Under the pieces are notes generated by a model. The model saw only the letters and a list, made by a program, of their open reading frames with translations, did not search any database and was not told the origin of the DNA. The position numbers were made by a program, and so were the translations under genes. Below, piece by piece: positions 4 to 21,487 of a DNA stretch of 47,656 bases (positions are counted from its first letter, which is position 1; every line of letters starts with the position of its first letter). Location: positions 1 to 47,656 of the forward strand of contig JAZSLO010000043.1 of NCBI GenBank assembly GCA_045535415.1, in the 5' to 3' direction. The DNA is from Eubacteriales bacterium. GTDB taxonomy: Bacteria > Bacillota > Clostridia > Oscillospirales > CAG-382.

Positions 4-1560
4 ATGGACAAAGTAGCAATTTATTGCCGCTTATCTGAAGAAGACAGAGACAAACTAAATAAAACAGACGATTCTGAAAGTATAAAGAATCAAAAATCAA
101 TGCTATTGAAGTATGCAATGCAACAAGGGTGGGAAGTTTACAACATTTACAGTGATGACGATTATGCCGGAGCTGACAGAAAAAGGCCTGAATTTAACAG
201 GTTGCTTCATGATGCCGAAGAAGGAAAATTTGATATTGTGCTTTGTAAAACTCAGTCGCGTTTCACTCGTGAACTTGAGCTTGTTGAAAAGTACATACAC
301 GGATTGTTTCCTCTTTGGGGAATCAGATTTGTCGGGCTTGTTGACAATGCTGATACCGACAACAAAGGTAACAAAAAAGCAAGACAGATAAACGGTCTTG
401 TAAATGAGTGGTATCTCGAAGATATGTCAGAAAGTATCAAAAGTTCACTTACAATCAGACGACAAAACGGATATCATATCGGTTCGTTTGCTCTCTATGG
501 TTATATGAAAGATCCTAACCAGAAAGGGCATCTGATTATCGATGAAGAAGCTGCAGAGGTTGTTCGCAAAGTGTTTACATTGTTTTCGCAAGGGATGGGC
601 AAAACCGCCATAGCAAGGTGGCTTAATGAGAAAGGAATACCTAATCCTACAGAATACAAACATCTGAAGGGGCTCAGGTACAAACAACCGGAATCGAAAA
701 AAAGTACACTTTGGAGATACTTTGCTATATCTGATATGTTGGTGAATGAAATTTATATCGGAAATATGGTTCAAGGTAAATATGGCAGTGTTTCTTACAA
801 AACTAAGGAAAACAAACCACGACCTAAAGACCAATGGTACCGTGTCGAAGGAACACACGAGCCTATTATCGATCGTGAACTTTGGGACAGAGTGCAGGGA
901 ATGATAAAGAATCGCACAAAACCATTTACTACGGGAAATATAGGTGTTTTCGCTGGCAAAGTACACTGTGAGCATTGCGGTTATACGATGCGTTCTTCAA
1001 AGAGTCGTGGTGAGCATTATCTGCAATGTGCAACAAAGCACGTGGCAAAGGGGGCCTGCGAGGGTGCTTTTATTCCGGTGAAGAAGCTTGAAAGCATCGT
1101 AATTGCTGAACTGAATCGTATGACGAGAGAATTTCTTGACAAGGATGAGCTCGAACAGAAAATTGAGTTTGCAAAGAATCTTACCGAGCAAAAGAAAAAG
1201 CTTGAATCAGAGGTTGAACGGTACAAAAAGCTTGTTGACAGTACTTCCCGTGCAGTTAAGGAGTGTTATCTTGATAAAGTTAAGGGCGACATTGATATTG
1301 ATGAATACAATTCAATCGTCAAAGAACTGAAATCAGATAAGACAAAGTATGAAAAAGTTATAACTGACGGAGAAAATCAGATTGCAGAGATTGAAGAGCG
1401 CCTTGCAGCCGGAGATAATCGTCGTGAACTGATTGAACAGTACACCAATATCACAGAACTTGACCGTGAAACTGTGGACATTATGATTGATCACATCGTT
1501 GTCGGCAGACGAATCAAGGGTACGAAAAATTACCCCGTTGAAATTTATTGGAACTTCTGA
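4..1560 (+). CDS. large serine recombinase, probably the integrase of a second integrated element lying left of the window
   Basis: Full 518-aa ORF. N-terminal catalytic-serine motif VAIYCRLSEEDRD, recombinase domain, Cys-rich zinc ribbon (CEHCGYTMRS...LQC...C) and a C-terminal coiled coil. The 3' end points at the cotJC breakpoint near 1714. Confidence 0.9.
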   Translation: MDKVAIYCRLSEEDRDKLNKTDDSESIKNQKSMLLKYAMQQGWEVYNIYSDDDYAGADRKRPEFNRLLHDAEEGKFDIVLCKTQSRFTRELELVEKYIHGLFPLWGIRFVGLVDNADTDNKGNKKARQINGLVNEWYLEDMSESIKSSLTIRRQNGYHIGSFALYGYMKDPNQKGHLIIDEEAAEVVRKVFTLFSQGMGKTAIARWLNEKGIPNPTEYKHLKGLRYKQPESKKSTLWRYFAISDMLVNEIYIGNMVQGKYGSVSYKTKENKPRPKDQWYRVEGTHEPIIDRELWDRVQGMIKNRTKPFTTGNIGVFAGKVHCEHCGYTMRSSKSRGEHYLQCATKHVAKGACEGAFIPVKKLESIVIAELNRMTREFLDKDELEQKIEFAKNLTEQKKKLESEVERYKKLVDSTSRAVKECYLDKVKGDIDIDEYNSIVKELKSDKTKYEKVITDGENQIAEIEERLAAGDNRRELIEQYTNITELDRETVDIMIDHIVVGRRIKGTKNYPVEIYWNF

Positions 1561-1698
1561 GGCAAGAGCTGAAAATGACTGTTTTTGCCTCAGGTTGTTC
1601 TTACAACATCGTAGCTATGAAAAAGCAAGCGCAACAGAAAAAACGACAAAAATCGCATAAAATAAGGGTTTTCAGCAATTCGGTTTTGTATGTTGTTC

Positions 1699-2039
1699 TT
1701 ATGAGATTGTAGCATCTGCTGCAAGGTCTTCGGTAAGGTCGGTTATTGCGTCACCTTTAGATTGAAAAACAAGGGAGGTAAAGGGAATGCCGCCCGAGGA
1801 CATAGGCCAAAGACCTGGGCCGTGGTCAACATAATAGGTGTAAAAACCGCTGTCTTCAATCTGCTTTTCGGTAAGACCACGTGTTAGCTGACGAATCATT
1901 GAACTGACAAGCTCCATATGAGCAAGTTCTTCCGTACCGATGTCAGTAAGAAGGCCCGTTACATCGTTGTAGGGCATGCTGTATCTTTGAGAAAGATAGC
2001 GCATACTTGCCGCAAGTTCGCCGTCAGGACCGCCGAACT
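1699..2039 (-). pseudogene. cotJC: internal segment of split spore-coat gene cotJC (Mn-catalase family), roughly residues 29-136 of the family
   Basis: Translation FGGPDGELAASMRYLSQRYSMP..LLTDIGTEELAHMEL..GIPFTSLVFQSKGDAITDLTEDLAA matches the CotJC/Mn-catalase pattern. It lacks the N-terminus (found at 39747-39840). It ends prematurely (..AADATIS*) about 50 residues before the family C-terminus. Confidence 0.85.
2028..2039. repeat. attL core (GACCGCCGAACT), identical to 39747-39758
   Basis: Exact 12-nt direct repeat at both cotJC breakpoints, in the same codon phase (TTC GGC GGT on the minus strand). Confidence 0.8.
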
Positions 2040-2064
2040 TCATTAGGCTATTGAGTGCCAAAAA

Positions 2065-3519
2065 TTAATCTACCATAAGGCGATAGGAGATTTTTAAGCA
2101 GTTTGTTTCGGATGAGAATGAGCAGGTGCTTATCAGTCCGCTTGCTGCTTCGTTCTTTTGCTCAAGTGTTGCCTTTTCGTCATTGATAACTTCAAGCACT
2201 TTTGCAATTGCGCTTTTCAGCAATTTTAAATCGTCTTTGGTATTCCGTTTCTGATTTTGCTTTTTCTTTTGTTTTTCCAAAAGTTCAAGTTCACTATCAA
2301 TAGAATACTTTATTTTTTTATAATTGTCAAGGGTTTCCACTCCATTTAGGTATGCTTCTCTTAATCTATCAAGTTTCTTCTTCAGGTTTTGCTCTTGTTT
2401 CTCAAGGTTTACATCCTTTGAGGAGAGGGATATTATCTCCGAAAAGTATTCGACGGGGACAAAGGTTCCTGTGTCTGTTTCAAGGCGCTGGACAAGTGCT
2501 CTTTCAAGTTCATCCTGCGGTATTGCCTGAGAATGAGAGCATCTTCCTTTGAGATAATTTCCGCACTTATATTTTCCGCAATTCCAGATAAGTGTTGCAT
2601 TACATTCGCTACATCTTACTATTCCAGAAATCCAATGTTTTTTTTCTGATGCAGGTCTTGCGTGATACTTGAACTGCTCTTTTAACATTCTCATACGCCT
2701 TTGTGCAGCGTTCCAGGTTTCCTCGTCAATTATGGGCTTATGCTTTGCATCTGCCGTTATGATATTTTCATCATCAAAGTTGCGTTTTGACCTACCCGTC
2801 GGATTCCAACGCAGTTTTCCGATATATACAGGGTTTCTGATTATATACTCTATTGTCCTATGCTCAAAGGGGTTTCCTCTATGTGTTTTTATGCCAAGTG
2901 AGTTTACATATCTTGCAACGGGCAAATAGCCTTCACCGCCGACAAAGCGTGCGAAAATTGTTTTTACTATCTCTGCTTCCTCGGGTACCGGCACGAGTAC
3001 ATTATCCTTTACTGCATATCCGAAAGGTGCTGTTGTCTGAAGCTCTCCACGCAGTGCCTTTTCTGTCATACCCTTTTTTACCTCATCGGAAAGGTTTATT
3101 GAATAGTATTCCGCCATTGCTTCAAGCATTGCTTCAAGTATTACGGAAAACTTATCATCCTCTATTGACTCGGTTATGGATATAACACGCACACCGCATT
3201 CTTTTTTAAGCATTGACTTATATACAACGCTATCCTCACGGCTTCTTGCAAATCTATCAAATTTATGCACGAGTATTACATCAAATGGGTGGTCTTTACT
3301 CTTTGCCATTGATATCATTTGCATAAATGCAGGTCTTTTTTCAGCTTTTCTTCCTGATATGCCTTCATCGACAAATATGAATTCCTCGGGAATATACATA
3401 TTGTTGGTGTCGGCATATTTTTTTAATGCCTTTTTTTGTGCATCGGGGGAATATTCCGTCTGGTCATCTGTACTTACACGGATATAAGCGGCGGCTATAA
3501 GGGTTTTATTATGCTTCAT
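2065..3519 (-). CDS. large serine recombinase (prophage integrase)
   Basis: 484 aa. AAYIRVSTDDQ catalytic-serine motif, recombinase domain, zinc ribbon (CSECNATLIW..KYKCGNY..GRC) and a coiled-coil C-terminus. The stop codon lies 25 bp from the attL core. 12 nt downstream of the repressor gene on the same strand. Confidence 0.92.
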   Translation of the reverse strand: MKHNKTLIAAAYIRVSTDDQTEYSPDAQKKALKKYADTNNMYIPEEFIFVDEGISGRKAEKRPAFMQMISMAKSKDHPFDVILVHKFDRFARSREDSVVYKSMLKKECGVRVISITESIEDDKFSVILEAMLEAMAEYYSINLSDEVKKGMTEKALRGELQTTAPFGYAVKDNVLVPVPEEAEIVKTIFARFVGGEGYLPVARYVNSLGIKTHRGNPFEHRTIEYIIRNPVYIGKLRWNPTGRSKRNFDDENIITADAKHKPIIDEETWNAAQRRMRMLKEQFKYHARPASEKKHWISGIVRCSECNATLIWNCGKYKCGNYLKGRCSHSQAIPQDELERALVQRLETDTGTFVPVEYFSEIISLSSKDVNLEKQEQNLKKKLDRLREAYLNGVETLDNYKKIKYSIDSELELLEKQKKKQNQKRNTKDDLKLLKSAIAKVLEVINDEKATLEQKNEAASGLISTCSFSSETNCLKISYRLMVD

Positions 3520-3531
3520 TATATCACCGCC

Positions 3532-4455
3532 TTATATATTCTTGATAACTGTTTTTACAAGTCCTACAACTCTTATTCTGAGTACATCTCTGCCCTCAAA
3601 TCTCTGCATCGGGTACATAGGGTTTATGGAATGCAGTTCAATCCAGTTATCACCGTACACGACCTTTTTGACAAGGCCTTCTTCACCGTCAAGGAGAATT
3701 ACGGCTATCTGACCGCTATCAACGCTTGTTTGTCTATGTACCTGAATTATATCACCGTCTTCAATTTTTGGATGCATGCTATCGCCTGTTACCTTAATAC
3801 AGATTGAGTTTTCTGCATCAGCAGGGTTTGTTATATAGCAGGGGACATAATCAAGCACATCACTTACAGCGCAGGCTCCAAAGCCTGCGGAAACGGATTC
3901 AAAGAGAGGAATCATATATATGTTTTTATCGTTTAAGAATATTGCGTTTGCTTCGGGAGAGGGGAATGTAATACCTTTGCGGTCTGTATCTTGCTCTTTT
4001 TCTTCTGAAAAATAAGATACAGGGACACCAAAGAAATCGGCAATTTTTGCGAGTGCAGTGCTATGGGGAACTGCACCGTTCTTCCACCGTGTAACAGCAC
4101 CCGACGAGATACCGAGTTGTTTTGCAACGGGGTTTGGCTTTGTATTATTCTCAACACACAATCTTACAAATCTTTCCCAAAACATATCAAAACTATCATT
4201 AGATTGTATTTGATTGTCTGATGTGGAGAGGGTAGGTTTTGCACTTTTATCATCTGTTTGGTCGGTCAAATATTCAAGAGAGGTGTCTAAAATCTTGATG
4301 ATTATAGACAACCTATCGTTTGGTATATCTCCGCCATTTGATTTCAAAATATCATTGAAGTAACTTCTTCCCATACCGAATTTCTTACAAATAAAGGCTA
4401 TTGAAATCCCCTTTTCTTTTGCCAATTCCTTTATTTTTGAAATGTTTACCTTCAT
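3532..4455 (-). CDS. CI/LexA-like phage repressor: two XRE-type HTH domains plus an S24 autopeptidase domain
   Basis: Two HTH segments (KEKGISIAFICKKFGMGRSYF; VAKQLGISSGAVTRWKNG). C-terminal VTGDSMHP...LVKKV Ser/Lys peptidase signature. Divergent from a cro-like gene. Confidence 0.85.
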   Translation of the reverse strand: MKVNISKIKELAKEKGISIAFICKKFGMGRSYFNDILKSNGGDIPNDRLSIIIKILDTSLEYLTDQTDDKSAKPTLSTSDNQIQSNDSFDMFWERFVRLCVENNTKPNPVAKQLGISSGAVTRWKNGAVPHSTALAKIADFFGVPVSYFSEEKEQDTDRKGITFPSPEANAIFLNDKNIYMIPLFESVSAGFGACAVSDVLDYVPCYITNPADAENSICIKVTGDSMHPKIEDGDIIQVHRQTSVDSGQIAVILLDGEEGLVKKVVYGDNWIELHSINPMYPMQRFEGRDVLRIRVVGLVKTVIKNI

Positions 4456-4475
4456 AATTCACACCCTTTGTTAAT

Positions 4476-4573
4476 TTTGACTAAACCTACAACACATTTG
4501 TTGTGCAACCCTACAAAAGTAGGTGATTGTTTAGAAAAAAGTATTGACAAAACCTACGCAGGTAGGTTACAAT
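4476..4573. promoter_or_regulatory. lysis-lysogeny switch region with operator-like inverted repeats and a rightward promoter
   Basis: TTGACA (4544-4549), 18-nt spacer, TACAAT (4568-4573). Inverted repeat AACCTAC-GCAG-GTAGGTT (4551-4568) sits between -35 and -10. Related CCTAC-AAAA-GTAGG at 4510-4523. ACAACA-N4-TGTTGT at 4489-4504. Confidence 0.5.
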
Positions 4574-4653
4574 ACAATCACAGAACAAATCCGTAACACG
4601 ATTATATCATTGTTGGAAATTGTTTGTCAAGTATTTACGAAAGGAGAAAATAT

Positions 4654-4854
4654 ATGAAGCTTAGCAAAGCCTTAAAGCGCAAAAGACTTGCGGCAGGACT
4701 TACTCAGGAACAGCTCGCTCAGAGTCTTGGTATTCAGCATACTGTTATTTGCGAATACGAGAACGGAAAGCGAGGAGCAAATCCGGGAAGAATAAAGGCT
4801 ATGGCCGATGTTCTCGGCTGTGATGTTGAAAGTATTATTGACGAGAACTCTTAA
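4654..4854 (+). CDS. Cro-like XRE-family HTH regulator
   Basis: RBS AAAGGAG upstream of ATG 4654. LTQEQLAQSLGIQHTVICEYENGKR helix-turn-helix. Divergent from the repressor. Confidence 0.75.
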   Translation: MKLSKALKRKRLAAGLTQEQLAQSLGIQHTVICEYENGKRGANPGRIKAMADVLGCDVESIIDENS

Positions 4855-4927
4855 TTTAATTTAAGAAGAATCGAGGAGGAAAGAAGGTGAGAATATGCTT
4901 TTGAGGATTATCGGACTTGTTTTGTTT

Positions 4928-5260
4928 TTAGTTTGTGTCAATTTTATTGCCTCCCTTTTTGCGACGGCTTTTACTGCCGAGGTTCGTGATTATGGTAAAA
5001 TCAGGGCTTGTTTTTATTTGCTGGGTGTTTTCCTTGCAGGAATAGTTATTGGCATATTTCTTTTTTAGAACCCCGTCATTTCCGAAATATGACCAGTCAA
5101 GGTGTTGTCCGCATCTATCGCAATAGGATTGAAATTCTCTTTCAAGAGTTATTTCACATCTTGGGCAGATTGGAAACACGGACAAGTCTTTACATTCAAA
5201 AACCCTTGTGACTTTCATTTTAATTCTAAAGCTTTGAGCGTCCTCTAAATCAGGCGACAT
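4928..5260 (-). CDS. small zinc-ribbon protein (hypothetical); start uncertain
   Basis: CPRC..x12..YCDRCGQHLDWS motif, paralogous to 10286-10549. The C-terminal half is low-complexity and overlaps a plus-strand 57-aa ORF (4895-5068). Confidence 0.4.
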   Translation of the reverse strand: MSPDLEDAQSFRIKMKVTRVFECKDLSVFPICPRCEITLEREFQSYCDRCGQHLDWSYFGNDGVLKKKYANNYSCKENTQQIKTSPDFTIITNLGSKSRRKKGGNKIDTN

Positions 5261-5558
5261 TCTTTGCAGATTCCTTCACGATTCTTGCAAGGTCTGAAAG
5301 CACCTTTGAAGGACTATCGCACAGAAACAGCAGAAAGAGAATAATTGTGAGTGTGCCGGGCGTTGTCTTTTGGTTTTCTATAAGGCAGTAGGAGCGCACA
5401 TCCATTTGCAGTTTTTCTGCCATCTGGCTTTGAGTGAGCGAAAGGGACTTTCTTGTTTCATAGAATTTCTTTGAAAAATACTCCTGAAGTTTTGAATGTA
5501 ATACTTTTCTCATTAAAATGTGATACCTCTTTCGACAAATTTTTACACATTTTAACAA
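5250..5558 (-). CDS. XRE-family HTH protein, paralogue of 39423-39692 (true start possibly 5513)
   Basis: LTQSQMAEKLQMDVRSYCLIENQK..TLTIILFLL aligns with LTQKKMANLLEMDVRSYSDIENGK..TLTFILLL of the attR-proximal gene. Confidence 0.65.
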   Translation of the reverse strand: MLKCVKICRKRYHILMRKVLHSKLQEYFSKKFYETRKSLSLTQSQMAEKLQMDVRSYCLIENQKTTPGTLTIILFLLFLCDSPSKVLSDLARIVKESAKNVA

Positions 5559-5692
5559 AATATTCCAGCCAATAAAATGAGGCGCATATCATATTTTTTA
5601 ATTTCAAACAACTTTTTTATGAGTTTTTACGACAGGACAAGCAACAAAATACAAATTTTTGCATATTTTTTTAAATGAAAGGAGACACGACA

Positions 5693-5965
5693 ATGCCGAG
5701 AAAACCAAAAGAAAGACCGCCTATAAGAACAGAATCCTATGTTCATGTGGGCGACAAGCTTGTAAACACAGACGATTTAAACCCCGTTCAGAAGGAAAAG
5801 CTTGGGATATGGATAAAAACAACTCTTTTAAATTCTATTTACAGAGGCAGGTACCGCTTTTTCCCCGTTGATGAAAACGGAAACGAAATTACTATTGACG
5901 ACATTACACCTGAGCTTCTTGAAACAATGAAGGCAAGGCAGACGGCTTCTGAATCAAAGGCTTGA
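5693..5965 (+). CDS. hypothetical early protein
   Basis: ORF with RBS AAAGGAG before ATG 5693. No recognised motif. Confidence 0.45.
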   Translation: MPRKPKERPPIRTESYVHVGDKLVNTDDLNPVQKEKLGIWIKTTLLNSIYRGRYRFFPVDENGNEITIDDITPELLETMKARQTASESKA

Positions 5966-6010
5966 AATGAAAAAGGAAGTCAAAAAAGGACAAGCATTAC
6001 AGGAGGCAAT

Positions 6011-6808
6011 ATGACAGAAAAAGAATACAGACTTCATCCTGCAATATCACGCTCGGAATTATTCAGAATAAGCGAAAGTCCCGAAAAGTTTAAGTATTAC
6101 AAGGACAACCCTCCGTCTCCCACTCCTGCGTTAATTTTTGGTCAGGCTTTTCACAAAGCGGTTCTTGAGCCGAGAAGTTTTAACAAGGAGTTTGCAGTTA
6201 TGCCAAATGTTGACAGGCGCACAAAAGAGGGGAAGGCACTGCACGAAAGTTTTTTGCAAGAGTCAAGAGAAAAAACGATTATTTGTGCCGAGGATTTCTT
6301 ACTTATAAAGGAAATGGCAAAGGCACTCAAGAAAAATGAGTATGTGAAAAAGTTACTTTCGGGCAAAAAGGAAAAGGCTTATTTCTGGACTGACGAGCTT
6401 TCCGGTGAAGAATGCAAATGCAGAGTTGACTGTCTGAACACGAAATTTTCCACACCTATTATTATTGACTTAAAGACAACGCTGGATGCTTCAACGGAAG
6501 GTTTCACAAAGGCTGCCATAAAGCACGGATATGATTTTCAGGCAGCTATGTACAGCGAGGGTGTCAAGAAAAACATAAAAAAGGATGTTCTGTTTGTTTT
6601 TATTGCCATAGAAAAAACGCCGCCTTATGCAATAAACATATTTCAGGCGGACGAGCTCTTTATAAAGCGCGGATATGACCTTTTCCGAGAGTACATAGGT
6701 ATTTATTCGGAATGCAAACAAAAAGGCGAATTTTGGGGTTATCTCGGGCATTACAATCAAATAAACAACTTATCCTTGCCAAGTTATTTGGCAAAGGAAA
6801 TTGAATAG
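6011..6808 (+). CDS. PD-(D/E)XK exonuclease (RecE-C-terminal/DUF3799-like)
   Basis: N-terminal HPAISRSEL..G.AFH pattern and IIDLKT (D..K) nuclease motif. Immediately upstream of an annealing-protein gene. Confidence 0.65.
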   Translation: MTEKEYRLHPAISRSELFRISESPEKFKYYKDNPPSPTPALIFGQAFHKAVLEPRSFNKEFAVMPNVDRRTKEGKALHESFLQESREKTIICAEDFLLIKEMAKALKKNEYVKKLLSGKKEKAYFWTDELSGEECKCRVDCLNTKFSTPIIIDLKTTLDASTEGFTKAAIKHGYDFQAAMYSEGVKKNIKKDVLFVFIAIEKTPPYAINIFQADELFIKRGYDLFREYIGIYSECKQKGEFWGYLGHYNQINNLSLPSYLAKEIE

Positions 6809-6817
6809 GAGAAGATT

Positions 6818-7663
6818 ATGAACAAAGACATTATAGAAGTTGAGGCACAGGTGCCAAATGCTCCCGAAATGAAAAACGGGATTATGGCACAAATGGACAA
6901 CATAAATCAGGGAACTGTTGCAATTGAAGCAAGCAGAGCCATAGCGGAAGCGCAGGGAAAACTTGTTATTGCAAAAAGATTCCCGAGAGACGAGGTACAG
7001 TCTTATGCAAAGGCAATGGAAGCCTGTCAGAGACCTTCAATGGCAGAAAAAGCATTTTATTCCTTTCCAAGAGGTACACAGACAGTTGAAGGACCGACAA
7101 TACGCTTTGCAGAGGAGCTTGCTCGTTGCTGGGGCAACATTGATTACGGTATAAAGGAACTGTCACAGGATGGCGGAAAAAGCGAAATGCAGGCGTATGC
7201 GTGGGATTTGGAAACAAATGCTCAGAGTATTCAGAACTTTACAAACCCACACGCACGAGAACAAAACAAAAAAATGGTAACTCTTACAAGTCAGAGGGAC
7301 ATTTACGAAAACAATGCAAATATGGCAACAAGGAGACTCAGAAGCCGTATTCTTGCAATTTTGCCTTCCTGGTTTGTTGAAGATGCTATTGCCGAATGTA
7401 AAAAAACTCTTGCGGGGCAGAATGACACCCCTCTTGTTGACAGAGTTAAGAAAATGGTTACTTCCTTTGCGAAGTTAGGTGTTACTCAAAAGCAACTTGA
7501 GGGCAGACTTAAACGCAAAATTGACACAATGAATGCCGATGACTTCACGGAATATATTGGAATTTACAATGCGATAAAGCAGGGGGAGAGCAAGATTGCA
7601 GACTGGTTTGAGGCTGAAAAGGTTGCGACTGACCTCTCTGATGAACTTAAAGGTGCACAATGA
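6818..7663 (+). CDS. single-strand annealing protein (RecT/Red-beta-like superfamily)
   Basis: Position after the exonuclease gene. C-terminal ATRRLRSRILAILP resembles the RecT AIRRLFKYLP segment. Assignment is by pattern only. Confidence 0.5.
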   Translation: MNKDIIEVEAQVPNAPEMKNGIMAQMDNINQGTVAIEASRAIAEAQGKLVIAKRFPRDEVQSYAKAMEACQRPSMAEKAFYSFPRGTQTVEGPTIRFAEELARCWGNIDYGIKELSQDGGKSEMQAYAWDLETNAQSIQNFTNPHAREQNKKMVTLTSQRDIYENNANMATRRLRSRILAILPSWFVEDAIAECKKTLAGQNDTPLVDRVKKMVTSFAKLGVTQKQLEGRLKRKIDTMNADDFTEYIGIYNAIKQGESKIADWFEAEKVATDLSDELKGAQ

Positions 7664-8133
7664 TTATTGTTGATACAAGAGAAAAAAAGAACGCTCACAT
7701 ACTCGAGTACTTTGACAAAAACGGAATATTCTATACTCTCAAAAAACTTGATGTTGCAGATTACAGTCTTGAGGGAAATGAAAAGGTATGTGTTGACCGA
7801 AAACAGAATCTTGAAGAGGTTTCTTATAATCTTATGAACAAAAAGGACCATTCAAGGTTTTGGAAGGAAGTCCGCAGGGCAAAGGAAAAGGGCATTAAAA
7901 TGATTGTTCTTTGCGAACACGGCGGAAGCATTACGGACATTAAAAGCGTGTCAAAATGGCACTCTCTTTATACTACGGTTTCGGGCCGTACTCTTATGGA
8001 CGAAATTTACAGGGTACATATTTCCTATGGAGTGGAGTTTCTCTTTTGCAAAAAGTGTGACACCGGAAGAATAATAAACGAGATTTTGACAGGAACTTAT
8101 AAAGGAGATGCGACAAATGAAAGTCAGAATTGA
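7660..8133 (+). CDS. ERCC4-type (XPF/Mus81-like) nuclease, possible junction resolvase
   Basis: IIVDTREKK .. VADY .. VDRKQNLEE matches the ERCC4 domain signature (DxRE..GDY..ERK). Confidence 0.6.
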   Translation: MIIVDTREKKNAHILEYFDKNGIFYTLKKLDVADYSLEGNEKVCVDRKQNLEEVSYNLMNKKDHSRFWKEVRRAKEKGIKMIVLCEHGGSITDIKSVSKWHSLYTTVSGRTLMDEIYRVHISYGVEFLFCKKCDTGRIINEILTGTYKGDATNESQN

Positions 8134-8452
8134 AAGAACAACCAAAAAACAAAAAGACGAAGCTCTATCCTACGCTATGAACTGGCTTAAAGGGACAGCG
8201 ATGCCGAAAGTGACTCGCAATGTTGAAGCAATCATTTTATGGCAGCTTCACGAACAGTTTGGATTTGGAAAGAAGCGTCTTTTAAAGTTTCTTGACAACA
8301 CAATGCCGATGTTGACGCATATGCTTGATTATTACGATTATCAGACCGACGAGGACGCTATATGGATTTGTGAGCACAAGTTAAAGACGGTGCTTGGCAT
8401 TGACCTTAATGAGATAAATTCGCCGTTTGAGGCAAAACCAGTTGTGAGGTGA
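8117..8452 (+). CDS. hypothetical protein
   Basis: ORF with AAAGGAG 9 nt upstream of ATG 8117. Confidence 0.4.
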   Translation: MKVRIERTTKKQKDEALSYAMNWLKGTAMPKVTRNVEAIILWQLHEQFGFGKKRLLKFLDNTMPMLTHMLDYYDYQTDEDAIWICEHKLKTVLGIDLNEINSPFEAKPVVR

Positions 8453-8456
8453 GAAA

Positions 8457-9329
8457 ATGGATAAAGAACATATTGCGATAGAACGATTGAAAATAGCAAG
8501 TGAAATGTCATTAAACTATTATCAAAAACCTGTATCAATTTGTTGTTCAGGCGGCAAAGACAGTGCAGTGATAGTAGAACTTGCAAAAAGAGCAGGAATA
8601 CCATTCATTGTGCAGCACAGTCATACAACAGTTGATGCTCCTCCAACGGTTCTACATATAAGAAAATTATTTAGAAAACTTGAACTTGAAGGAATAAAAA
8701 CACTATATACTATGCCAAAGCTGACTATGTGGCAGCTTATTGTAAAGAAAAAAATGCCACCAACAAGGATTGTTAGATACTGCTGTTCTGAACTCAAAGA
8801 AACTTATGGAAATAACAGTCATATAGTTACTGGCGTAAGAAAAGCAGAAAGTCATAAGAGACAATCAAGAACCGTGTATGAAAGTTTTGAGAGAGATATT
8901 AAAAAAAAGGTTTATCTTGATGACAACAGCGATATAAGAAAATTGACTGAAATATGTCAAAGGCGTGGAAAAACAACAACTAACGCAATTATAGATTGGG
9001 AAGATTATGAAGTCTGGGATTTCTTAGCAGATGCAAAAGTAGAGCTTAATCCGCTTTATGAGATGGGATTTCATAGAGTAGGGTGTGTAGGATGCTCGAT
9101 GGCATCAAAATGCGAGAGAAAAAGAGAGTTTGAATTATTCCCGACTTATAAAAAAGCGTATATAAATGCCTTTGACAAAATGATTTTAGCGAGAAAAACC
9201 GCAGGGCTTGAATTAAATCCACATTGGAATACAGGAGAAAATGTTTTTCGCTGGTGGATGGAAGAAAAATTTCATCCTGACCAAATAAATATGTTTGAGG
9301 AATTTAAGGAGAATGACAATGACGGATGA
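8457..9329 (+). CDS. PAPS reductase/PP-loop ATPase family protein
   Basis: PP-loop CCSGGKDSAV near the N-terminus. C-terminal Cys pair (GCVGCSM). Confidence 0.75.
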   Translation: MDKEHIAIERLKIASEMSLNYYQKPVSICCSGGKDSAVIVELAKRAGIPFIVQHSHTTVDAPPTVLHIRKLFRKLELEGIKTLYTMPKLTMWQLIVKKKMPPTRIVRYCCSELKETYGNNSHIVTGVRKAESHKRQSRTVYESFERDIKKKVYLDDNSDIRKLTEICQRRGKTTTNAIIDWEDYEVWDFLADAKVELNPLYEMGFHRVGCVGCSMASKCERKREFELFPTYKKAYINAFDKMILARKTAGLELNPHWNTGENVFRWWMEEKFHPDQINMFEEFKENDNDG

Positions 9330-9510
9330 TGCAATAAAAGAGGCAAAAAAATATTATAAATATGGAATTGATTGTGATATATTTCAAGAGCCGGTATTGA
9401 GTTACGCAAGAACAGTACTTTGGGCATTTGAAGAAATTGACCGCCAAAAAGCAGAGATTGAAATGTTTTAGAGGAGAGAAGAGGAAATCAAGGAAGGTTT
9501 AGAAAAAATA

Positions 9511-9702
9511 ATGGCAATGCTTGATGAAACGGAAGCATCTGTTTTAAGAGATATTAAAAATGCAAAAATTCAAGCATACAAAGAGTTTGCGGAGAGGGCA
9601 AAAAAGAAAGCATATCCATTCCCGTGTGCAATAGGTGTTGAATATGCCGTTTCAATACGAGGGATTGACGATACTTTAAAAGACCTAACAGAAAACAAAT
9701 AA
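9511..9702 (+). CDS. hypothetical small protein
   Basis: ORF in the co-oriented early gene array. Confidence 0.3.
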   Translation: MAMLDETEASVLRDIKNAKIQAYKEFAERAKKKAYPFPCAIGVEYAVSIRGIDDTLKDLTENK

Positions 9703-9727
9703 AAGAACGATTTTAAGGAGTGAGAGT

Positions 9728-9937
9728 ATGAAAGATAAAGATTTAACTTGGGATATAGTCAATTCTGAAATGATGAGAAAAAGACTTTTTAAGCGGTATT
9801 GTTGGCTTAACTCTTGTTGTGAAGAATGCAATAAAAAAGTTCGTTTTTGGTGTCTGATTAAAGAACGCATAATCAAACATCAAGAAAATATTATAACAAA
9901 ATCGCTTAATAAAAGATTAAAGAGAAATCATCAATAA
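9728..9937 (+). CDS. hypothetical small protein
   Basis: Preceded by the repeated RBS cassette AAAAGAACGATTTTAAGGAGTGAGAGTATGAA. Confidence 0.35.
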   Translation: MKDKDLTWDIVNSEMMRKRLFKRYCWLNSCCEECNKKVRFWCLIKERIIKHQENIITKSLNKRLKRNHQ

Positions 9938-9986
9938 AATCGCAATTCTAAAACCAAACAAAAGAACGATTTTAAGGAGTGAGAGT

Positions 9987-10247
9987 ATGAATATATATTG
10001 GTGCTTTGAAAAGAATGATTATTCGGGATTGTATGTTATTGCTGAAACAAGAGGAAAAGCAAAGCAAATATTTGCAAATGAAATTGGTGAGAGCTATATC
10101 GACATACGAAGTTCTATTTACAGGCGTGGTGTAAATGAACGGAGAGGGACAATTGAGGCAGAAGAAATCGAATTGCTTAATAAATACAATTTGGAATATG
10201 GCGAAGAAGAAATTCCTGATAATTGGGGCTATGGGTGTGTATTGTAA
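9987..10247 (+). CDS. hypothetical small protein
   Basis: Preceded by the same 32-bp RBS cassette as 9728. Confidence 0.35.
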   Translation: MNIYWCFEKNDYSGLYVIAETRGKAKQIFANEIGESYIDIRSSIYRRGVNERRGTIEAEEIELLNKYNLEYGEEEIPDNWGYGCVL

Positions 10248-10285
10248 CCCACAATAAAATCGCAATTCAAAACGGAGGAAACAAA

Positions 10286-10549
10286 ATGAACAAAAAGTAT
10301 AACGAAACAATTAAGCCTGTTGCATTGAGAAAGAAAAAAGACGCTGAAGCTAAAAAAGTTAGGGTTGTGAATCCGTCAAGCGTTAAAGCATTTGATGGCA
10401 AAGACAAAGTATTGACATACCGTTGCTATCCTTGCCCTGAATGTGGCAAATGGCTGATTGATAATGAAAACCATAAATATTGTCAATGGTGTGGTCAGGC
10501 TCTTGATTGGAGCGACCACCCAACCGAGAAAGGCGGTGTGCAGGAATGA
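10286..10549 (+). CDS. zinc-ribbon protein (hypothetical)
   Basis: RBS GGAGGAA. CPECGKWL..x..YCQWCGQALDWS motif, paralogous to 4928-5260. Confidence 0.45.
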   Translation: MNKKYNETIKPVALRKKKDAEAKKVRVVNPSSVKAFDGKDKVLTYRCYPCPECGKWLIDNENHKYCQWCGQALDWSDHPTEKGGVQE

Positions 10550-10941
10550 GAGAGATTTTGTTTAGAGGTAAAGATATAGCAGGTAATTGGCATTATGGCG
10601 ACTTGATTAACTTAACAAAAGAAATAAAGCAAATCTGCAACCATAACCAATTAGAACACGCACACAGCGTAAACCCCGAAACAGTAGGACAATACACAGG
10701 CTTGACCGACAAGAACGGCAAGAAGATATTTGAGGGTGATATCTGTCAAACAAAAGGTTATCCAATTATTGATGAAAAACCATTTGAAATAGTTTGGAAC
10801 AATTATTATGGCGGATGGTATTGGCAAGACCTGTTTGTGTCGGTAGAAACCGACGCTCTCACGATGTCAGTCGCAGCGCTAACAAAAGTAATTGGTAACA
10901 TACACGATAACCCCGAACTGTTGAAAGGCGGTGCGGAGTGA
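10546..10941 (+). CDS. YopX-family phage protein
   Basis: MREILFRGK...VGQYTGLTDKNGKKIFEGDI is the typical YopX pattern. Confidence 0.7.
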   Translation: MREILFRGKDIAGNWHYGDLINLTKEIKQICNHNQLEHAHSVNPETVGQYTGLTDKNGKKIFEGDICQTKGYPIIDEKPFEIVWNNYYGGWYWQDLFVSVETDALTMSVAALTKVIGNIHDNPELLKGGAE

Positions 10942-11174
10942 TGGACGAAATTGAATACAGAGAAGAATCTATAAAGCCCGGTGGGGCGAGAGTCATAAAT
11001 GCTTATGTCGACGGCCGTCTTGTTATGTGTTACACGGGATATTTCGGAAGAAATCCGAATGTTTTGGTTCTCTATCCCAGAGGGCAGGGCATTCACACTA
11101 GCCGCATCAAGATGCCCGGCAAGCACGAGGTTTCTATATTTAAAATTAAGTCTGAAGAAAAGGTGAGAGGATGA
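10938..11174 (+). CDS. hypothetical protein
   Basis: ORF with start/stop overlap to its neighbours. Confidence 0.35.
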   Translation: MMDEIEYREESIKPGGARVINAYVDGRLVMCYTGYFGRNPNVLVLYPRGQGIHTSRIKMPGKHEVSIFKIKSEEKVRG

Positions 11175-11548
11175 AAGCAATGGGAATTTTGACAAATAAA
11201 AAAGGCAGCCGAACTGCTGGAACAGTATCGACTGCCAATCGGTCAAAAACGAGACCGACAATGCGCAAGGCTATTATACAACATATTTTTCAAAATTGCA
11301 AGATATTTTTTATAATTCTTGTTTTAGCCCTGCTTATTATTCTTTACATACAAGATGCGCCTTATGAATACAGCGCAGTTGAGCACAGAGTAAATGAGGG
11401 TGACACCCTTTGGGACATTGCAAAACAGTACAAGCCTGAGAGTGTTTCAATGCAGGAATATATGGCGTGGGTTTACGAACACAACGAGGAAGGTATTATT
11501 TTTCCCGGAGATATTGTTATTATGGCAAAAGAGGTGGATAAAAAATGA
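11171..11548 (+). CDS. membrane-anchored LysM-like protein
   Basis: One hydrophobic helix (IFFIILVLALLIILYI) followed by VNEGDTLWDIAKQY...GDIVIM, a LysM-type motif. Confidence 0.5.
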   Translation: MKAMGILTNKKGSRTAGTVSTANRSKTRPTMRKAIIQHIFQNCKIFFIILVLALLIILYIQDAPYEYSAVEHRVNEGDTLWDIAKQYKPESVSMQEYMAWVYEHNEEGIIFPGDIVIMAKEVDKK

Positions 11549-11796
11549 AAAACAAACGCTGCAAGAGTGCTGCATCTATTTGCATTGACTGTGCAAAGTC
11601 GGGCGGTCTTTGTGCCTGGTCATCAAATTTTCAGGCGGTCCCGGGATGGAAAACGCAAAGGGTTTTGCGAAAAGACATACATAACAAGCCCCAATATTCA
11701 ACAAGAGTTATTAAGTGCCCCTTTTTTGAAACTGAAAAATACGGAGGTGGAAAAGCAAATGTGCAAAATATGTTATTCAGACCCTTGCAATCGTGA
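11545..11796 (+). CDS. Cys-rich hypothetical protein
   Basis: ORF overlapping the stop of the upstream gene. CIDCAKSGGLC motif. Confidence 0.35.
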   Translation: MKNKRCKSAASICIDCAKSGGLCAWSSNFQAVPGWKTQRVLRKDIHNKPQYSTRVIKCPFFETEKYGGGKANVQNMLFRPLQS

Positions 11797-12004
11797 TTGT
11801 CCGAATGCTCCTGTGGGAAGAAAAGTCGGAGTATGCAAGGCTTGCGGATATACTCTTTTTCACAACGATGAAGTGACGGCAGTTAAAATCAACGGCATTT
11901 ACAACAAATATCATTACGATTGTTTTATTGAACTTTCGGCTCCTGATTTTGTAAATGACTTTGAGTTATCTGATGTTATATGTGCCATAAACGAAAGGGC
12001 ATAA
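11759..12004 (+). CDS. Cys-rich hypothetical protein
   Basis: RBS GGAGGTGG before ATG 11759. CKIC..C..DC...CKACG motifs. Confidence 0.35.
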   Translation: MCKICYSDPCNRDCPNAPVGRKVGVCKACGYTLFHNDEVTAVKINGIYNKYHYDCFIELSAPDFVNDFELSDVICAINERA

Positions 12005-12030
12005 AAAGACCGCCGCACAAATGCGGCGGT
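12003..12030 (-). terminator. intrinsic terminator downstream of yafQ
   Basis: 9-bp GC-rich stem ACCGCCGCA/TGCGGCGGT (12009-12030). On the minus strand it is followed by CTTTTTAT. Confidence 0.6.
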
Positions 12031-12041
12031 GAGATGATGAA

Positions 12042-12317
12042 TCAGAACAGGTCGCTATGTGTGCCGGTTCTTGACAATGTAAGCACAAGCACATCATTTT
12101 GGATTTTATACACCAAAAGCCAATCTGGCTGTATATGGCACTCACGAAAGCCTTTATATTCGCCTGTCAGAGAATGGTCTCTATACTTTTCCTCAAGCTT
12201 TTCTCCGTTTGCAAGCAAGGCGACAACCTCTTTTAAAAGAGAAATGTCAAGACCTCTCTTTTTTATGAGTTTATAGTCTTTTTTAAATTGTGTTGAAAGT
12301 TTAATGTTATATGCCAT
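12042..12317 (-). CDS. yafQ: YafQ/RelE-family type II toxin (mRNA interferase)
   Basis: MAYNIKLSTQFKKDYKL..KRG...L..GE..EKYRDHSLTGEYKGFRECHIQPDWLLVY....VLTLSRTGTHSDLF is the characteristic YafQ pattern. Overlaps the upstream antitoxin gene. Confidence 0.8.
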   Translation of the reverse strand: MAYNIKLSTQFKKDYKLIKKRGLDISLLKEVVALLANGEKLEEKYRDHSLTGEYKGFRECHIQPDWLLVYKIQNDVLVLTLSRTGTHSDLF

Positions 12318-12588
12318 TTTCCAAATCCTCAAAAAGTTCGTCTACGTCGGAGTAAGCTTTTGCAGGGATTTTGCCGTCGAGGATGTCTTGTGTCTCTCTC
12401 ATTGCCGAAAGAGTCACAGCGTTTGGTCTTTTTGCTTTGATTTCAAAGGGCAGACCATTATTGGAAAGAGCTTGTCGTAAAAATATATTGATTGCTGTGG
12501 ACATATTGAGGCCCAGCTCTTCAAAGAGTGCATCGGCTTGTTTTTTTACATCTTCGTCTATTCGGATATTTGTACTTACTGTTTTCAT
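12307..12588 (-). CDS. dinJ: DinJ/RelB-family antitoxin
   Basis: NIRIDEDVKKQADALFEELGLNMSTAINIFLRQ is the typical RelB/DinJ ribbon-helix-helix N-terminus. Confidence 0.8.
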   Translation of the reverse strand: MKTVSTNIRIDEDVKKQADALFEELGLNMSTAINIFLRQALSNNGLPFEIKAKRPNAVTLSAMRETQDILDGKIPAKAYSDVDELFEDLENGI

Positions 12589-12689
12589 AAATTACACCTC
12601 CCACAATTAGTATATTCATAATAGCACAAATTATACACAATGTCAATACAATGTATAAAAATATTTACACAAAGAAAGGAATTTTAAAA

Positions 12690-13118
12690 ATGAGTATTTC
12701 ACTTAACAAAGTTATTATTATCGGAAATCTGACAGCAGACCCTATTCTTGAAACAACAATGAGCGGTGTTGCTGTTACAAAAGTAAATGTTGCCGTGGCA
12801 AGAGATTTTGTCAAAGAGGAAAATGCTGTAAAGGCAGATTTCTTCAGAGTGGTGGCGTGGCGTGAGAGAGCCGAGAAGCTGTCAAAATTCTTTAAGAAAG
12901 GTCAGCCTGTAATGGTAGTGGGTAGACTTGAAAACTCGCAATTTACGGCAAATGACGGCTCTGTACGGCACATTACGGAAATTATTGCTGACGAAATAAG
13001 GTTTGCATCGACAAAGAGTAATACAGACAGCGCACAAGTTCACAAGCAAGCAGACACAAAAGAGCAAAAGGATATAAATTTAACTCAAATGGGAAATGAA
13101 GAGGATTTGCCGTTTTGA
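12690..13118 (+). CDS. ssb: single-stranded DNA-binding protein
   Basis: LNKVIIIGNLTADP OB-fold start, FFRVVAWRERAE, acidic tail ending EEDLPF. Confidence 0.9.
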   Translation: MSISLNKVIIIGNLTADPILETTMSGVAVTKVNVAVARDFVKEENAVKADFFRVVAWRERAEKLSKFFKKGQPVMVVGRLENSQFTANDGSVRHITEIIADEIRFASTKSNTDSAQVHKQADTKEQKDINLTQMGNEEDLPF

Positions 13119-13145
13119 TAAGAATAAATGTGAGGAGAATTTAAA

Positions 13146-13871
13146 GTGAAAAGGGACAGCATGGTGTTTTACAGAAGCTTTTTTGATGCCATTTATGAGC
13201 TTCCGCCGGAAGAATTTAAGAAATGTGCCTGTGCGGTGCTTGAATACGGATTTGACGGCAAAGAGCCTGAAACAAGTGGGATTGAAAAAACTATTTTTAT
13301 TATGGCAAGACCTCAGATTGACAAAACAATGACTCGTTATGATGCTTGTGTTCAAAATGGAAAATCGGGTGGAAGACCGAAAAAACAAAGCAGTTCAAGC
13401 TCTGAAAACGATACTGAACATAACCAAGACCATAACCAAAAAGGAAACCAAAGAAAAACCAAAACCATAACCAAAGAAAAACCAGAACAAAAACCTAAAA
13501 AAAACCTTAATTATAATTATAATTATAATGATAATGTAAATTATAATGAGAATGATAATTATAATGAGAATGAGTCTTTAAATTATAATGTTAGTAGTTG
13601 TTGTAGTAGTAATGTGGAGTGTGTTGAACACGACGACAACGACGACGGCAGCAGCCAAGAACGAGATTCATTTGAATATGTTGGAGGTATCGGAAAGGGA
13701 GTTGTATTACTTACTCAATCTCAAATGGATTTGTTAATTGACAAGCTGGGTATTGACGGATTTAACCACTACATAGAAAAGCTTGCTGATTTTATAATAA
13801 AAAAAGATGCAAAAGTTAAAAACCATTATGCCACAATTCTAAAATGGGTAGATGAGGATTCAAATGTATGA
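13146..13871 (+). CDS. phage replisome organizer/replication initiator-like protein with an internal low-complexity repeat region
   Basis: N-terminal FYRSFFDAI..LP.EEF.. pattern of replisome organizers. Central K/N/Y-rich repeats. C-terminal ..YATILKW.. segment. Confidence 0.55.
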   Translation: MKRDSMVFYRSFFDAIYELPPEEFKKCACAVLEYGFDGKEPETSGIEKTIFIMARPQIDKTMTRYDACVQNGKSGGRPKKQSSSSSENDTEHNQDHNQKGNQRKTKTITKEKPEQKPKKNLNYNYNYNDNVNYNENDNYNENESLNYNVSSCCSSNVECVEHDDNDDGSSQERDSFEYVGGIGKGVVLLTQSQMDLLIDKLGIDGFNHYIEKLADFIIKKDAKVKNHYATILKWVDEDSNV

Positions 13872-14299
13872 ATAAATTAACTGCGCAAGAATTTTTAAGA
13901 CAAGCATACAGACTTGATGAGCTTATTAAAAGTAATCAAGAAGAACTGAATAAGCTAAGAGAACAGGTTGTAACAATAAGTGCAATAAATTATGCAAAAG
14001 AAAAAATACAAAGTAGTCCACAAAGTGAGGCCCTTTTTTCCAGAACTATAATGAAAATCATTGACCTTGAAGAATCAATACAAGCAGATATTGACAAACT
14101 ATTCAATTTGAAGCTGGAAATAAGAACAGCAATTAATAATGTTGAAAACACGGATGAAAGGTTGTTGCTACGGTGCAGGTATTTGAATTTTCTTAAATGG
14201 GATGAAATATGTGAAGAAATGCATCTGTCAATGAGAACTGTGTTCAGAATACATATGTCTGCTTTACAAAACATAGTTGTACCGGCAGAATATTCTTGA
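13868..14299 (+). CDS. sigma-70 region-4-like late transcription regulator (ArpU/DUF1492-like)
   Basis: C-terminal ERLLLRCRYLNFLKWDEICEEMHLSMRTVFRIHMSAL resembles a sigma region-4 HTH. Last gene before the terminase. Confidence 0.5.
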   Translation: MNKLTAQEFLRQAYRLDELIKSNQEELNKLREQVVTISAINYAKEKIQSSPQSEALFSRTIMKIIDLEESIQADIDKLFNLKLEIRTAINNVENTDERLLLRCRYLNFLKWDEICEEMHLSMRTVFRIHMSALQNIVVPAEYS

Positions 14300-14542
14300 A
14301 AAACCATTATTATTTAAAGTTGGCAGATTATGACACTAAATGCTATTGTATGCCGAAAAAAATAATGTATAATTTAAAATAGATTATTACATTAAAGTGC
14401 GTTTTCATACTATATAGCATCCTTATACAGAAAGTCATTCCTAACACTTGGGAGTGCCTTTTTGTTTTGGATGAAGACAAAAAGGCAGGAGCAGAATCTG
14501 TCTGTTCTTTTTTATTTATGCAAGAAAGGAAGTGAAAATTCT

Positions 14543-14977
14543 ATGACTGACAAACAAAGAAAGTTTGCCGATGAATACCTGATTGACACAAATGCAACCA
14601 GGGCATATAAAGTAGCATATCCCCATGCCAAATCAGAAGGTGCTACAATGTCAGGTGCATCAAGATTGTTAAGAAATGTTAAGGTCAAAACTTATATAGA
14701 TGAACAACTTGAAAAGATCAGTTCTAAAAAGATTGCTGATGCAAAGGAAGTCATGGAATTTTTGACTTCTGTCATGCGTGGTGAAACCAAATCAGAAATA
14801 GTGGTTGTTGAAGGTTGCGGTGATGGTTATTCAGAAGCAAGAAACATTGATAAAGCACCTGACGAAAAAGAAAGACTGAAAGCAGCAGAACTTCTTGGAA
14901 AAAGATTTGGTCTGTTTAAGGACAATGTTGCACTTGAAGTTGAACCTGTTGTCATCATGAATGATTTGAAAGAATAG
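14543..14977 (+). CDS. terminase small subunit
   Basis: MTDKQRKFADEYLIDTNATRAYKVAY is the canonical Terminase_2 N-terminus. Confidence 0.8.
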   Translation: MTDKQRKFADEYLIDTNATRAYKVAYPHAKSEGATMSGASRLLRNVKVKTYIDEQLEKISSKKIADAKEVMEFLTSVMRGETKSEIVVVEGCGDGYSEARNIDKAPDEKERLKAAELLGKRFGLFKDNVALEVEPVVIMNDLKE

Positions 14978-16219: not shown

Positions 16220-16225
16220 GAAAGG

Positions 16226-17554: not shown

Positions 17555-17566
17555 AGGAGATTTGAT

Positions 17567-17761
17567 ATGCAGGTAATTGAAAGAAATGTAAAAGGACACA
17601 CGCTTTATACTCTCAAGGCTGAAGAGGGAATGTATATTAGCGACGGCAATATTTACGCTAAAACAATTCATTTAGGCATAAACAGTAATGTGTCAGATTT
17701 CCACGATGTTACGGAGAAAGAGTATCAATGCAAGATTAAAAATGACAATGGCACAGAATAA
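17567..17761 (+). CDS. hypothetical small protein
   Basis: ORF with RBS AAAGGAGA. Confidence 0.35.
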   Translation: MQVIERNVKGHTLYTLKAEEGMYISDGNIYAKTIHLGINSNVSDFHDVTEKEYQCKIKNDNGTE

Positions 17762-17799
17762 AGAAGTATATTAACAATGCAGAATAAGGCGGTGATGAT

Positions 17800-19260: not shown

Positions 19261-19305
19261 CAGTTGAAAAGCACTCAATAATCGGGTGCTTTTCTTTTTG
19301 GAAAA

Positions 19306-21389: not shown

Positions 21390-21459
21390 AAAACATTTAA
21401 CATAACGCAACGCACCACAGGGCAATCCTGGGGGGCAACAAGGCATTTTAATAACACAA

Positions 21460-21487
21460 GCACCCAAAAGTATAGGGTGCTTTTATT
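21460..21487 (+). terminator. intrinsic terminator
   Basis: Stem GCACCC/GGGTGC with a 9-nt loop, followed by TTTTATT. Confidence 0.6.

Follow-up and report, generated by a model that had tools for sequence, protein, structure and literature searches.

Evidence that a second large serine recombinase element interrupts a prophage-split cotJC gene in a Clostridia contig

The stretch of DNA analysed here (the window) is the entire contig JAZSLO010000043.1, 47,656 nucleotides (nt) long, from the Eubacteriales bacterium assembly GCA_045535415.1 (Bacillota, Clostridia, Oscillospirales, CAG-382). Its minus strand carries a cotJA-cotJB-cotJC operon, mother-cell expression of which is known from B. subtilis, and the coding sequence of cotJC is where the insertions described below fall. 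An earlier note on this DNA, made from the sequence alone, had proposed that cotJC is broken not only by a prophage but a second time, by an integrated element left of the window. The scope for finding a 3′ piece of cotJC is set by the left end of the contig, which lies 3 bp before the ATG of a large serine recombinase (LSR) gene at 4–1560. Coordinates of all features are collected in Table 1; labels beginning with L and P denote the loci and proteins, respectively, with which the window was compared.

The pieces of cotJC were located by tblastn with P0001, an intact CotJC orthologue of 200 amino acids (aa) that is 97% identical to the window gene and the nearest intact one to it. Within the window, residues 1–31 matched at 39840–39748 (93.5% identity) and residues 26–136 at 2046–1714 (94.6% identity). 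Read from 39840, cotJC homology stops past codon 31 and is picked up at about 2039 as ..FGGPDGELAAS.., and the 12-mer AGTTCGGCGGTC is found at both inner junctions (2028–2039 and 39747–39758). The DNA in between is a myovirus-like prophage, with PHROGs matches to a large terminase, portal, minor and major head proteins, tail sheath, tape measure, endolysin and a CI-like repressor, so that the first interruption taken for granted in the earlier note holds. The serine integrase of this prophage (3519–2065) is 97.5% identical to that of the close relative L009, and the Pfam scan found no DUF4368 domain in it.

The second break lies at the other end of the middle segment. The minus-strand open reading frame (ORF) at 1699–2061 reads ..FGGPDGELAAS..KGDAITDLTEDLAA and then DATIS-stop, with the stop codon at 1699–1701; cotJC homology ends at about 1715–1717, past codon 135 (..TEDLAA|), and what comes next are five foreign codons and the stop. 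The Pfam Mn_catalase model matches this ORF at 2.3e-25 and reaches only profile position 151 of 284, and residues 137–200 of P0001 had no tblastn match within the window. Excision of the prophage alone would therefore yield a protein of about 140 aa (31 + 104 + 5), as had been predicted. Orthologues do not naturally end at this position: intact ones with 97% and 91% identity are 197–200 aa long and continue past the break as AAEQKARTTYDNILRL..FLRAREIVHFQRFGEAL.., running on for some 65 residues.

Even so, a length of exactly 140 aa is found for many CotJC proteins in databases, which could be taken to mean that the gene is plainly truncated or exists in a natural short form, with the neighbouring recombinase being coincidental. 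At least 13 proteins among the top 120 CotJC relatives have this length and end in DLAA followed by D-[AGVE]-x-x-x-stop. However, all of these 140-aa forms share one element-derived tail, which stems from a conserved 23-bp arm with an in-frame TAA, while the 97%-identical intact orthologues run 65 residues further. Moreover, the break in the window matches this arm to the base, and about 150 independent loci carry the LSR family at this very codon, so that we consider plain truncation or a natural short form extremely improbable.

The DNA beyond the break looks like the end of an integrated element. The recombinase encoded at 4–1560 carries the N-terminal motif IYCRLSEED, aligns end to end with homologues of 517–521 aa, and scores over the curated Pfam cut-offs for Resolvase (PF00239, 1.8e-21), Recombinase (PF07508, 2e-27) and Zn_ribbon_recom (PF13408, 2.3e-11), as well as for DUF4368 (PF14287, 2.5e-9; 37.7 bits vs a cut-off of 25). 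It is full length, as the earlier note had it, with all LSR domains, and it does point at the break; from its stop at 1560 it is 138 bp to the stop codon that ends the truncated cotJC ORF and about 155 bp to the break itself. The arm at 1692–1714, about 130 bp past the recombinase stop, abuts the break and is followed by TC and then by the reverse complement of ..GACCTTGCAGCA. On the cotJC strand, this arm encodes DATIS as the tail of the fragment and, in frame, its TAA stop codon. The window itself shows one arm, the inverted partner of which is present in both L010 and L022.

The prophage integrase and the 4–1560 recombinase converge from opposite sides on the same cotJC segment of about 325 bp, which bears out the mirror arrangement that had been noticed. 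The two proteins are only 24% identical and, to judge from their sequences, represent unrelated subfamilies. An NCBIfam scan of both yielded only sub-threshold matches to CcrB and XisF, and no finer family.

Whether an LSR of this kind belongs next to a broken cotJC can be read from its relatives. With the 518-aa LSR as query, at least 578 relatives were found in species-representative genomes and at least 574 in metagenome contigs, and the best 80 from each collection (160 loci) were analysed. Cultivable carriers of such a recombinase include Lacrimispora indolis SR3, Clostridium fessum, Blautia difficilis and Anaerotignum lactatifermentans. Among the genome loci, at least 80 of 84 homologous recombinases (68–98% identical) directly adjoin a cotJC fragment broken at codon 135/136, and the same holds for 70 of the 75 informative recombinases in the metagenome loci. 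The possibility, raised in the earlier note, that this recombinase has att sites unrelated to cotJC can thus be set aside. The missing C-terminal 65 residues, used as a query in turn, revealed many ORFs of 66–110 aa starting with M-I-A-[AP]-EQKAR or ..CSY[KE][IV]A[AP]EQKAR, and one such cotJC 3′-remnant ORF was present on 147 contigs. At the attR junctions of L010–L015 and others, the inverted partner arm gives the 3′ fragment an in-frame ATG (M-I-A-A-EQKAR, in 67-aa ORFs), with no obvious ribosome-binding site before it. The 5′ and 3′ halves of cotJC, carrying element-supplied stop and start codons, might conceivably be made as separate polypeptides.

The junctions themselves are highly regular. 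On the 5′ side of cotJC their consensus is ..GCAGCA-GA-TG[CG]T[AG]C[AG]AT..TAAGAACAAC and on the 3′ side GTTGTTCTTATATGATTGCAGCA-GA-[AG]CA[AG]AA, and about 80 junctions show near-perfect inverted 23-bp arms about the central GA. Two arrangements are both common: a co-directional one, in which the recombinase stop is followed, after a few bases, by the arm and the 3′ remnant of cotJC (e.g. L011/L012), and a convergent one of the window type, in which the recombinase faces the cotJC 5′ fragment (e.g. L016, L017, L096). The opposite LSR orientation of loci such as L011 was considered as a contradiction and ruled out, since, seen relative to cotJC, both orientations have arms and core in common. 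In-silico removal of the DNA between the two GAs regained ORFs of 201–209 aa in L034, L047, L069 and L127, the elements of which are only 4.6–7.2 kb long. The co-directional elements of L011/L012 encode a relaxase, MobC, a two-component system with an ABC transporter, a sigma70_r4 protein and HTH_16.

Joined ends of such an element are present in L022 (JAZSHP010000084.1, a Candidatus Fimenecus sp. metagenome-assembled genome), a 3.2-kb contig. Its recombinase shares 97% protein identity with that of the window (93.7% nt identity over 1.4 kb), and its order is recombinase, arm, TC, inverted arm, RepA_N/DUF6017 gene and ParB gene. Because the recombinase, the arm, TC and the inverted arm read contiguously, we take L022 to carry the joined ends (attP, at 1393–1440), which speaks for the presence of a circular or tandem form in a natural sample. 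Past the centre, 324 bp of L022 match the element end in L010, taken as its reverse complement, with 95% identity, and this element end is in turn fused via ..GATTGCAGCA-GA-ACAAAAGG.. to a cotJC 3′ remnant that is 97–98% identical to the C-terminus of P0001. The L010 remnant thus sits on a matching inverted arm, and L022 links this element end to the recombinase end seen in the window.

The attP is a near-perfect 48-bp palindrome about the central GA, which is the centre of dyad symmetry both in L022 and in attP sites rebuilt from attL and attR at many loci. This suggests that crossover would take place at the central GA. As GCAGCAGA is common to attB and attP, the exact cut site can only be inferred; a palindromic dinucleotide inside GCAGCAGA was ruled out as the true crossover, the attP dyad centre being unambiguously GA. 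Members of this LSR clade would thus recombine a palindromic attP with an attB of the form ..CTTGCAGCA-GA-ACA[AG]AA.. in cotJC.

Because L022 ties the window recombinase end to the L010 element end, a layout of the window element can be drawn. On the plus strand, it would read: cotJC 3′ piece (minus strand), arm, RepA_N/DUF6017, ParB, cargo, the 4–1560 recombinase, the 1692–1714 arm, and the cotJC middle piece (minus strand). What the window shows of this is the right end, with the DUF4368-type LSR, a spacer of about 130 bp and the 23-bp arm, while the left end, as predicted from near-identical relatives, would consist of RepA_N/DUF6017, ParB and an inverted arm abutting the cotJC 3′ remnant. 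At the left junction, the inverted arm ..GTTGTTCTT..GATTGCAGCA-GA would be fused to cotJC codons 136–200. Upstream of the recombinase, the adjoining 10 kb of L017 and L096 contain genes for McrBC, SIR2-like and radical-SAM proteins along with further cargo or defence genes. The presence of RepA_N/DUF6017 and ParB hints at an integrative element of the mobilizable or conjugative kind.

Relatives also separate the two insertions. L009 has the same prophage and an uninterrupted cotJC 3′ part (P0018, 174 aa), past which come a 78-aa gene and an Aminotran_5 gene, and in L016, L017 and L096 the second element occurs where this prophage is absent; the two insertions are therefore separate events. The window LSR is 97–98% identical to that of L016, 96% to that of L017 and 97% to that of L096 (and 70–71% to those of L011/L013), while the CotJC proteins of the L016, L017 and L096 hosts are only 52–63% identical to P0001, with values of 52–58% in hosts whose LSR is 97–98% identical. 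Near-identical LSRs in hosts with such divergent CotJC proteins indicate recent movement of the second element between distant hosts, and the second element is presumably still mobile in the host of the window as well.

Double interruption is not confined to the window either. The 5′ cotJC fragment adjoining the recombinase is itself cut in 25 of the 60 informative convergent loci (about 40%), mostly at codons 28–30 (Q[FY]GG|PDGE, the same region as in the window) and in some cases at about codon 60. In L057, L082, L110, L141 and L150, a second recombinase, 35–36% identical to the window prophage integrase, converges on the fragment as it does in the window. A complete three-piece cotJC lies on a single contig in L068 (4085–15540 of CAJUHH010000003.1, Lachnospiraceae MGBC132469). 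There, a first element of 7.1 kb (Schlafen/AlbA_2, GmrSD-like, DUF4368 LSR) separates pieces 1 and 2, the second of which is about 41 codons long, and an element of about 3.7 kb (MarR, flavodoxin, a 511-aa LSR without DUF4368, ParE toxin) then precedes piece 3, at the site RFGEA|L. In L058, the 5′ fragment (2014–4014) is split again, with residues 59–136 at 2247–2014, residues 1–73 at 4014–3796 and about 1.5 kb in between.

At least four recurrent cotJC breakpoints were found in this way, at codons ~28–31 (Q[FY]GG|PDGE), ~58–64 (DIGTEELAH), 135/136 (DLAA|EQK) and ~176–179 (RFGEA|L), all of which are conserved motifs. The loci concerned are L018, L020, L028, L049, L053, L058, L066, L068, L076, L077, L082, L089, L091, L092, L096, L110, L120 and L134–L159. 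Elements at the other sites are diverse and have other LSRs, and the L096 neighbourhood contains a tyrosine integrase, RepA_N/DUF6017 and ParA.

Taken together, these data support the second-element interpretation: cotJC has very probably been hit twice and independently by LSR elements, the second time after codon 135 (DLAA|EQK) by an element that extends off the contig to the left. A three-piece cotJC, as claimed in the earlier note, is upheld by the abundant 3′ remnants of relatives and by L068 with all three pieces, although the third piece of the window gene itself lies off the contig, where it presumably still exists. Each element would have integrated by its own LSR at a short core within conserved codons, and precise removal would be possible in principle. 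Full-length CotJC (about 200 aa) would then need two separate precise excisions, one per LSR.

Several observations weigh against this reconstruction or parts of it. Because the contig begins only 3 bp before the LSR start codon, the element's body and the 3′ piece of cotJC both fall outside the window. L010, an ENA metagenome locus, is only 84.6% nt identical to L009, which is the closest relative of the window that was fetched, and L010 shares no sequence with the window, so that it serves as a proxy that is not assignable to the same species. The protein search did not return a cotJC 3′ remnant of about 100% identity from an NCBI source, the closest being P0121 of L010 with 98%. L022 might not stand for a free circle but for tandem copies or an assembly join. 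Genes for a relaxase or for type IV secretion did not turn up in the available parts of the window's clade (the 10 kb of L017 and L096, and L022), which yielded RepA_N/DUF6017, ParB and cargo genes only, relaxase and MobC occurring in the co-directional L011/L012. Finally, the LSR promoter in close relatives is sigma-A-like (TAGACA-N17-TATAAT) and lends no support to sporulation-specific expression.

That the contig stops right where the LSR gene begins, and that a matching 3′ remnant could not be recovered from this assembly, might in turn indicate that the left element is a decayed remnant of recombinase plus one arm, or that the cotJC 3′ piece has been deleted, with the gene no longer restorable. 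The LSR ORF is, however, full length, and its 96–98% identity to copies from other hosts speaks for recent transfer; both arm and core are intact as well. In addition, the contigs of L016, L023, L062 and L085 likewise start within a few codons of the LSR 5′ end, a pattern that repeat-induced assembly breaks fit better than a biological end does. We therefore regard decay or deletion as improbable. The recurrent contig starts suggest that the assemblies break where one recombinase module occurs with variable cargo in the same samples.

A different matter is what the two insertions, if real, mean for the host. We find it slightly more probable than not that they are simply tolerated, cotJC being dispensable or redundant and remaining inactivated, and that excision would occur only in the transfer or lytic cycle of the respective element. 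Beyond the sigma-A-like promoter, this agrees with the operation of TndX-type LSRs in ordinary conjugative transposons (PMC4430133), with the reported redundancy of the C. difficile cotJC paralogues, mutants of which lack a major coat defect (PMC11222575), and with the recurrent sites and doubly cut loci in the window orientation (at least four and 25 of 60), which would fit a tolerant landing zone. Against it stand the high conservation of the pieces, which are in frame in many lineages and suggest selection on a rebuilt gene, and the well-established developmental excision of LSR elements from mother-cell genes (skin, SPbeta, gin; PMC4191935, PMC5595907, PMC5025042), neither of which is decisive. 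Because the promoter is sigma-A-like and the C. difficile paralogues are redundant, we rate tolerated insertion somewhat likelier than developmental excision, and mother-cell-specific excision of both elements appears to us roughly a one-in-three prospect. Still more speculative, and in our view unlikely as a whole, is the scenario in which cotJC is a multi-site landing strip in gut Clostridia, the two LSRs both fire in the mother cell, and the palindromic arms flip the elements. Were it true, a doubly occupied cotJC would be a two-key developmental rearrangement that rebuilds one coat gene.

Table 1. Features of the window that bear on the split cotJC gene and its two insertions
Feature	Position	Strand	Basis
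Large serine recombinase (LSR), 518 aa, at the right end of the left-hand element, facing the cotJC break	4..1560	+	Pfam
Internal degenerate arm copy GTTGTTCTTACAACATCGTAGC, 33 bp past the recombinase stop	1594..1615	+	direct repeat
Right terminal inverted-repeat arm, 23 bp, GTTGTTCTTATGAGATTGTAGCA	1692..1714	+	conserved across ~40 junctions
Putative crossover dinucleotide, GA on the cotJC strand and TC on the plus strand	1715..1716	-	attP symmetry centre
cotJC middle segment, codons ~28-135, ~325 bp	1715..2039	-	tblastn, Pfam Mn_catalase
Prophage attL core AGTTCGGCGGTC	2028..2039	-	same 12-mer at both prophage junctions
Prophage, ~37.7 kb, in cotJC codon 31	2040..39746		PHROGs, flanking 12-bp core
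Prophage large serine integrase, 484 aa, at the left edge of the prophage	2065..3519	-	Pfam Resolvase, Recombinase, Zn_ribbon_recom
cotJC 5′ piece, codons 1-31 (MWNYEKK..SQFGG), holding the attR core (39747-39758)	39747..39840	-	tblastn, sequence reading
cotJB	39847..40206	-	Pfam CotJB 8.3e-23; mechanical ORF coordinates, true start probably internal
cotJA	40110..40325	-	Pfam CotJA 1.9e-11

The orientation of the elements in cotJC turned out to be labile. In a tree of the LSRs of L016–L175, it switched at least five times (compare also L011 and L050), and it differs even between recombinases that are 98.6% identical, L027 being co-directional and L028 convergent. Both orientations keep the same arm beside the recombinase, and the asymmetric core of about 8 bp alone is reversed (GCAGATGG vs CCATCTGC). 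An in-place flip by recombination between the 23-bp terminal inverted repeats would explain such orientation switching. Insertion of one LSR clade in either orientation is a modestly novel aspect of this system.

Between the recombinase stop and the terminal arm, the window carries a further, degenerate copy of the arm, which forms a direct repeat with 1692–1713 (82% identical, 98-bp spacing). Its position is where co-directional elements have their functional arm, and it may be a fossil arm of an earlier attachment site. A similar internal copy occurs in L033, directly past its LSR stop.

As the window begins immediately before the LSR ATG, the region upstream of this gene could be read in relatives only. 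In the window's clade it contains a conserved ORF of about 45 aa, MDKKKTQKDYVKNVYK.. (L017, L096 and L019 at 9690–10010; L097 at 547–867), past which come the sigma-A-like promoter and a strong ribosome-binding site (L017, L096, L097, L019). The ORF may encode a candidate cofactor or regulator of the LSR. At the opposite end of the window, 41346–47656 presumably holds host genes, which we take by eye to be a 1015-aa wall-associated protein with an amidase-like C-terminus, an endonuclease III-like gene, hrcA, grpE and the start of dnaK.

It is well known that recombinase elements interrupt sporulation genes, and in this respect the window is a real but fairly ordinary example. It nevertheless provides a clear sequence-level case of one small sporulation gene with two independent LSR elements, and the splitting of one gene in three by two elements is modestly novel. 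Neither is the second element a one-off, as it belongs to a large DUF4368 LSR clade dedicated to a single cotJC codon, with at least 570 relatives in each of two collections. A literature search yielded no paper on this cotJC site, this recombinase clade or a doubly split cotJC. The arrangement makes testable, in anaerobes beyond Bacillus and C. difficile, whether such insertions are a developmental switch or tolerated damage, whether a pair of excisions could be coordinated, and how LSRs recognise a protein-coding target that is conserved across families. The clade moreover offers many natural attP/attB pairs for one well-defined target, which is useful for studies of recombinase specificity.

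Among known systems, the interruption elements of cyanobacterial heterocyst genes (nifD, fdxN/XisF, hupL) are comparable in that XisF is an LSR and excision is developmental, in a terminally differentiated cell; both window LSRs match the XisF model below its cut-off. These elements concern another phylum and other genes, so that we draw an analogy and claim no membership. Some heterocyst genes have more than one element.

Tn4451 of clostridia, with its recombinase TnpX, is a comparable system as well, and both TndX and TnpX carry DUF4368. The relaxase, MobC, sigma70_r4 and HTH_16 genes upstream of the LSR in L011/L012 resemble the regulatory end of Tn916/Tn5397. TndX of Tn5397 has a central GA in its target, prefers a site inside a conserved protein domain, and was reported to be needed for both integration and excision and to suffice for them (PMC4430133). 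The window element is like Tn5397 in having the LSR at one end, a central GA and a strong preference for one site in a protein-coding domain, a likeness drawn via GA and DUF4368. It differs from Tn5397 in that its target is cotJC rather than a Fic-domain gene, and in that the far end of the elements in its clade has RepA_N/DUF6017 and ParB, while genes for defence or cargo lie close to the LSR and no conjugation genes were seen.

As to spore genes, cotJC is said, in a later preprint, to have been listed by Abe et al. in 2013 as a frequent target. Established cases are skin with SpoIVCA in sigK (in B. subtilis and C. difficile), SPbeta with SprA in spsM, gin with GirC in gerE, and yin in yabG (PMC4191935, PMC5595907, PMC5025042, PMC10747680). 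With these the window shares an LSR-carrying mobile or formerly mobile element inside the coding sequence of a spore gene; precise excision at the short core would restore the ORF, as predicted in silico in relatives that show both junctions. Unlike them, it has two unrelated LSR elements in one 600-bp gene, and the LSR promoter of its relatives looks vegetative.

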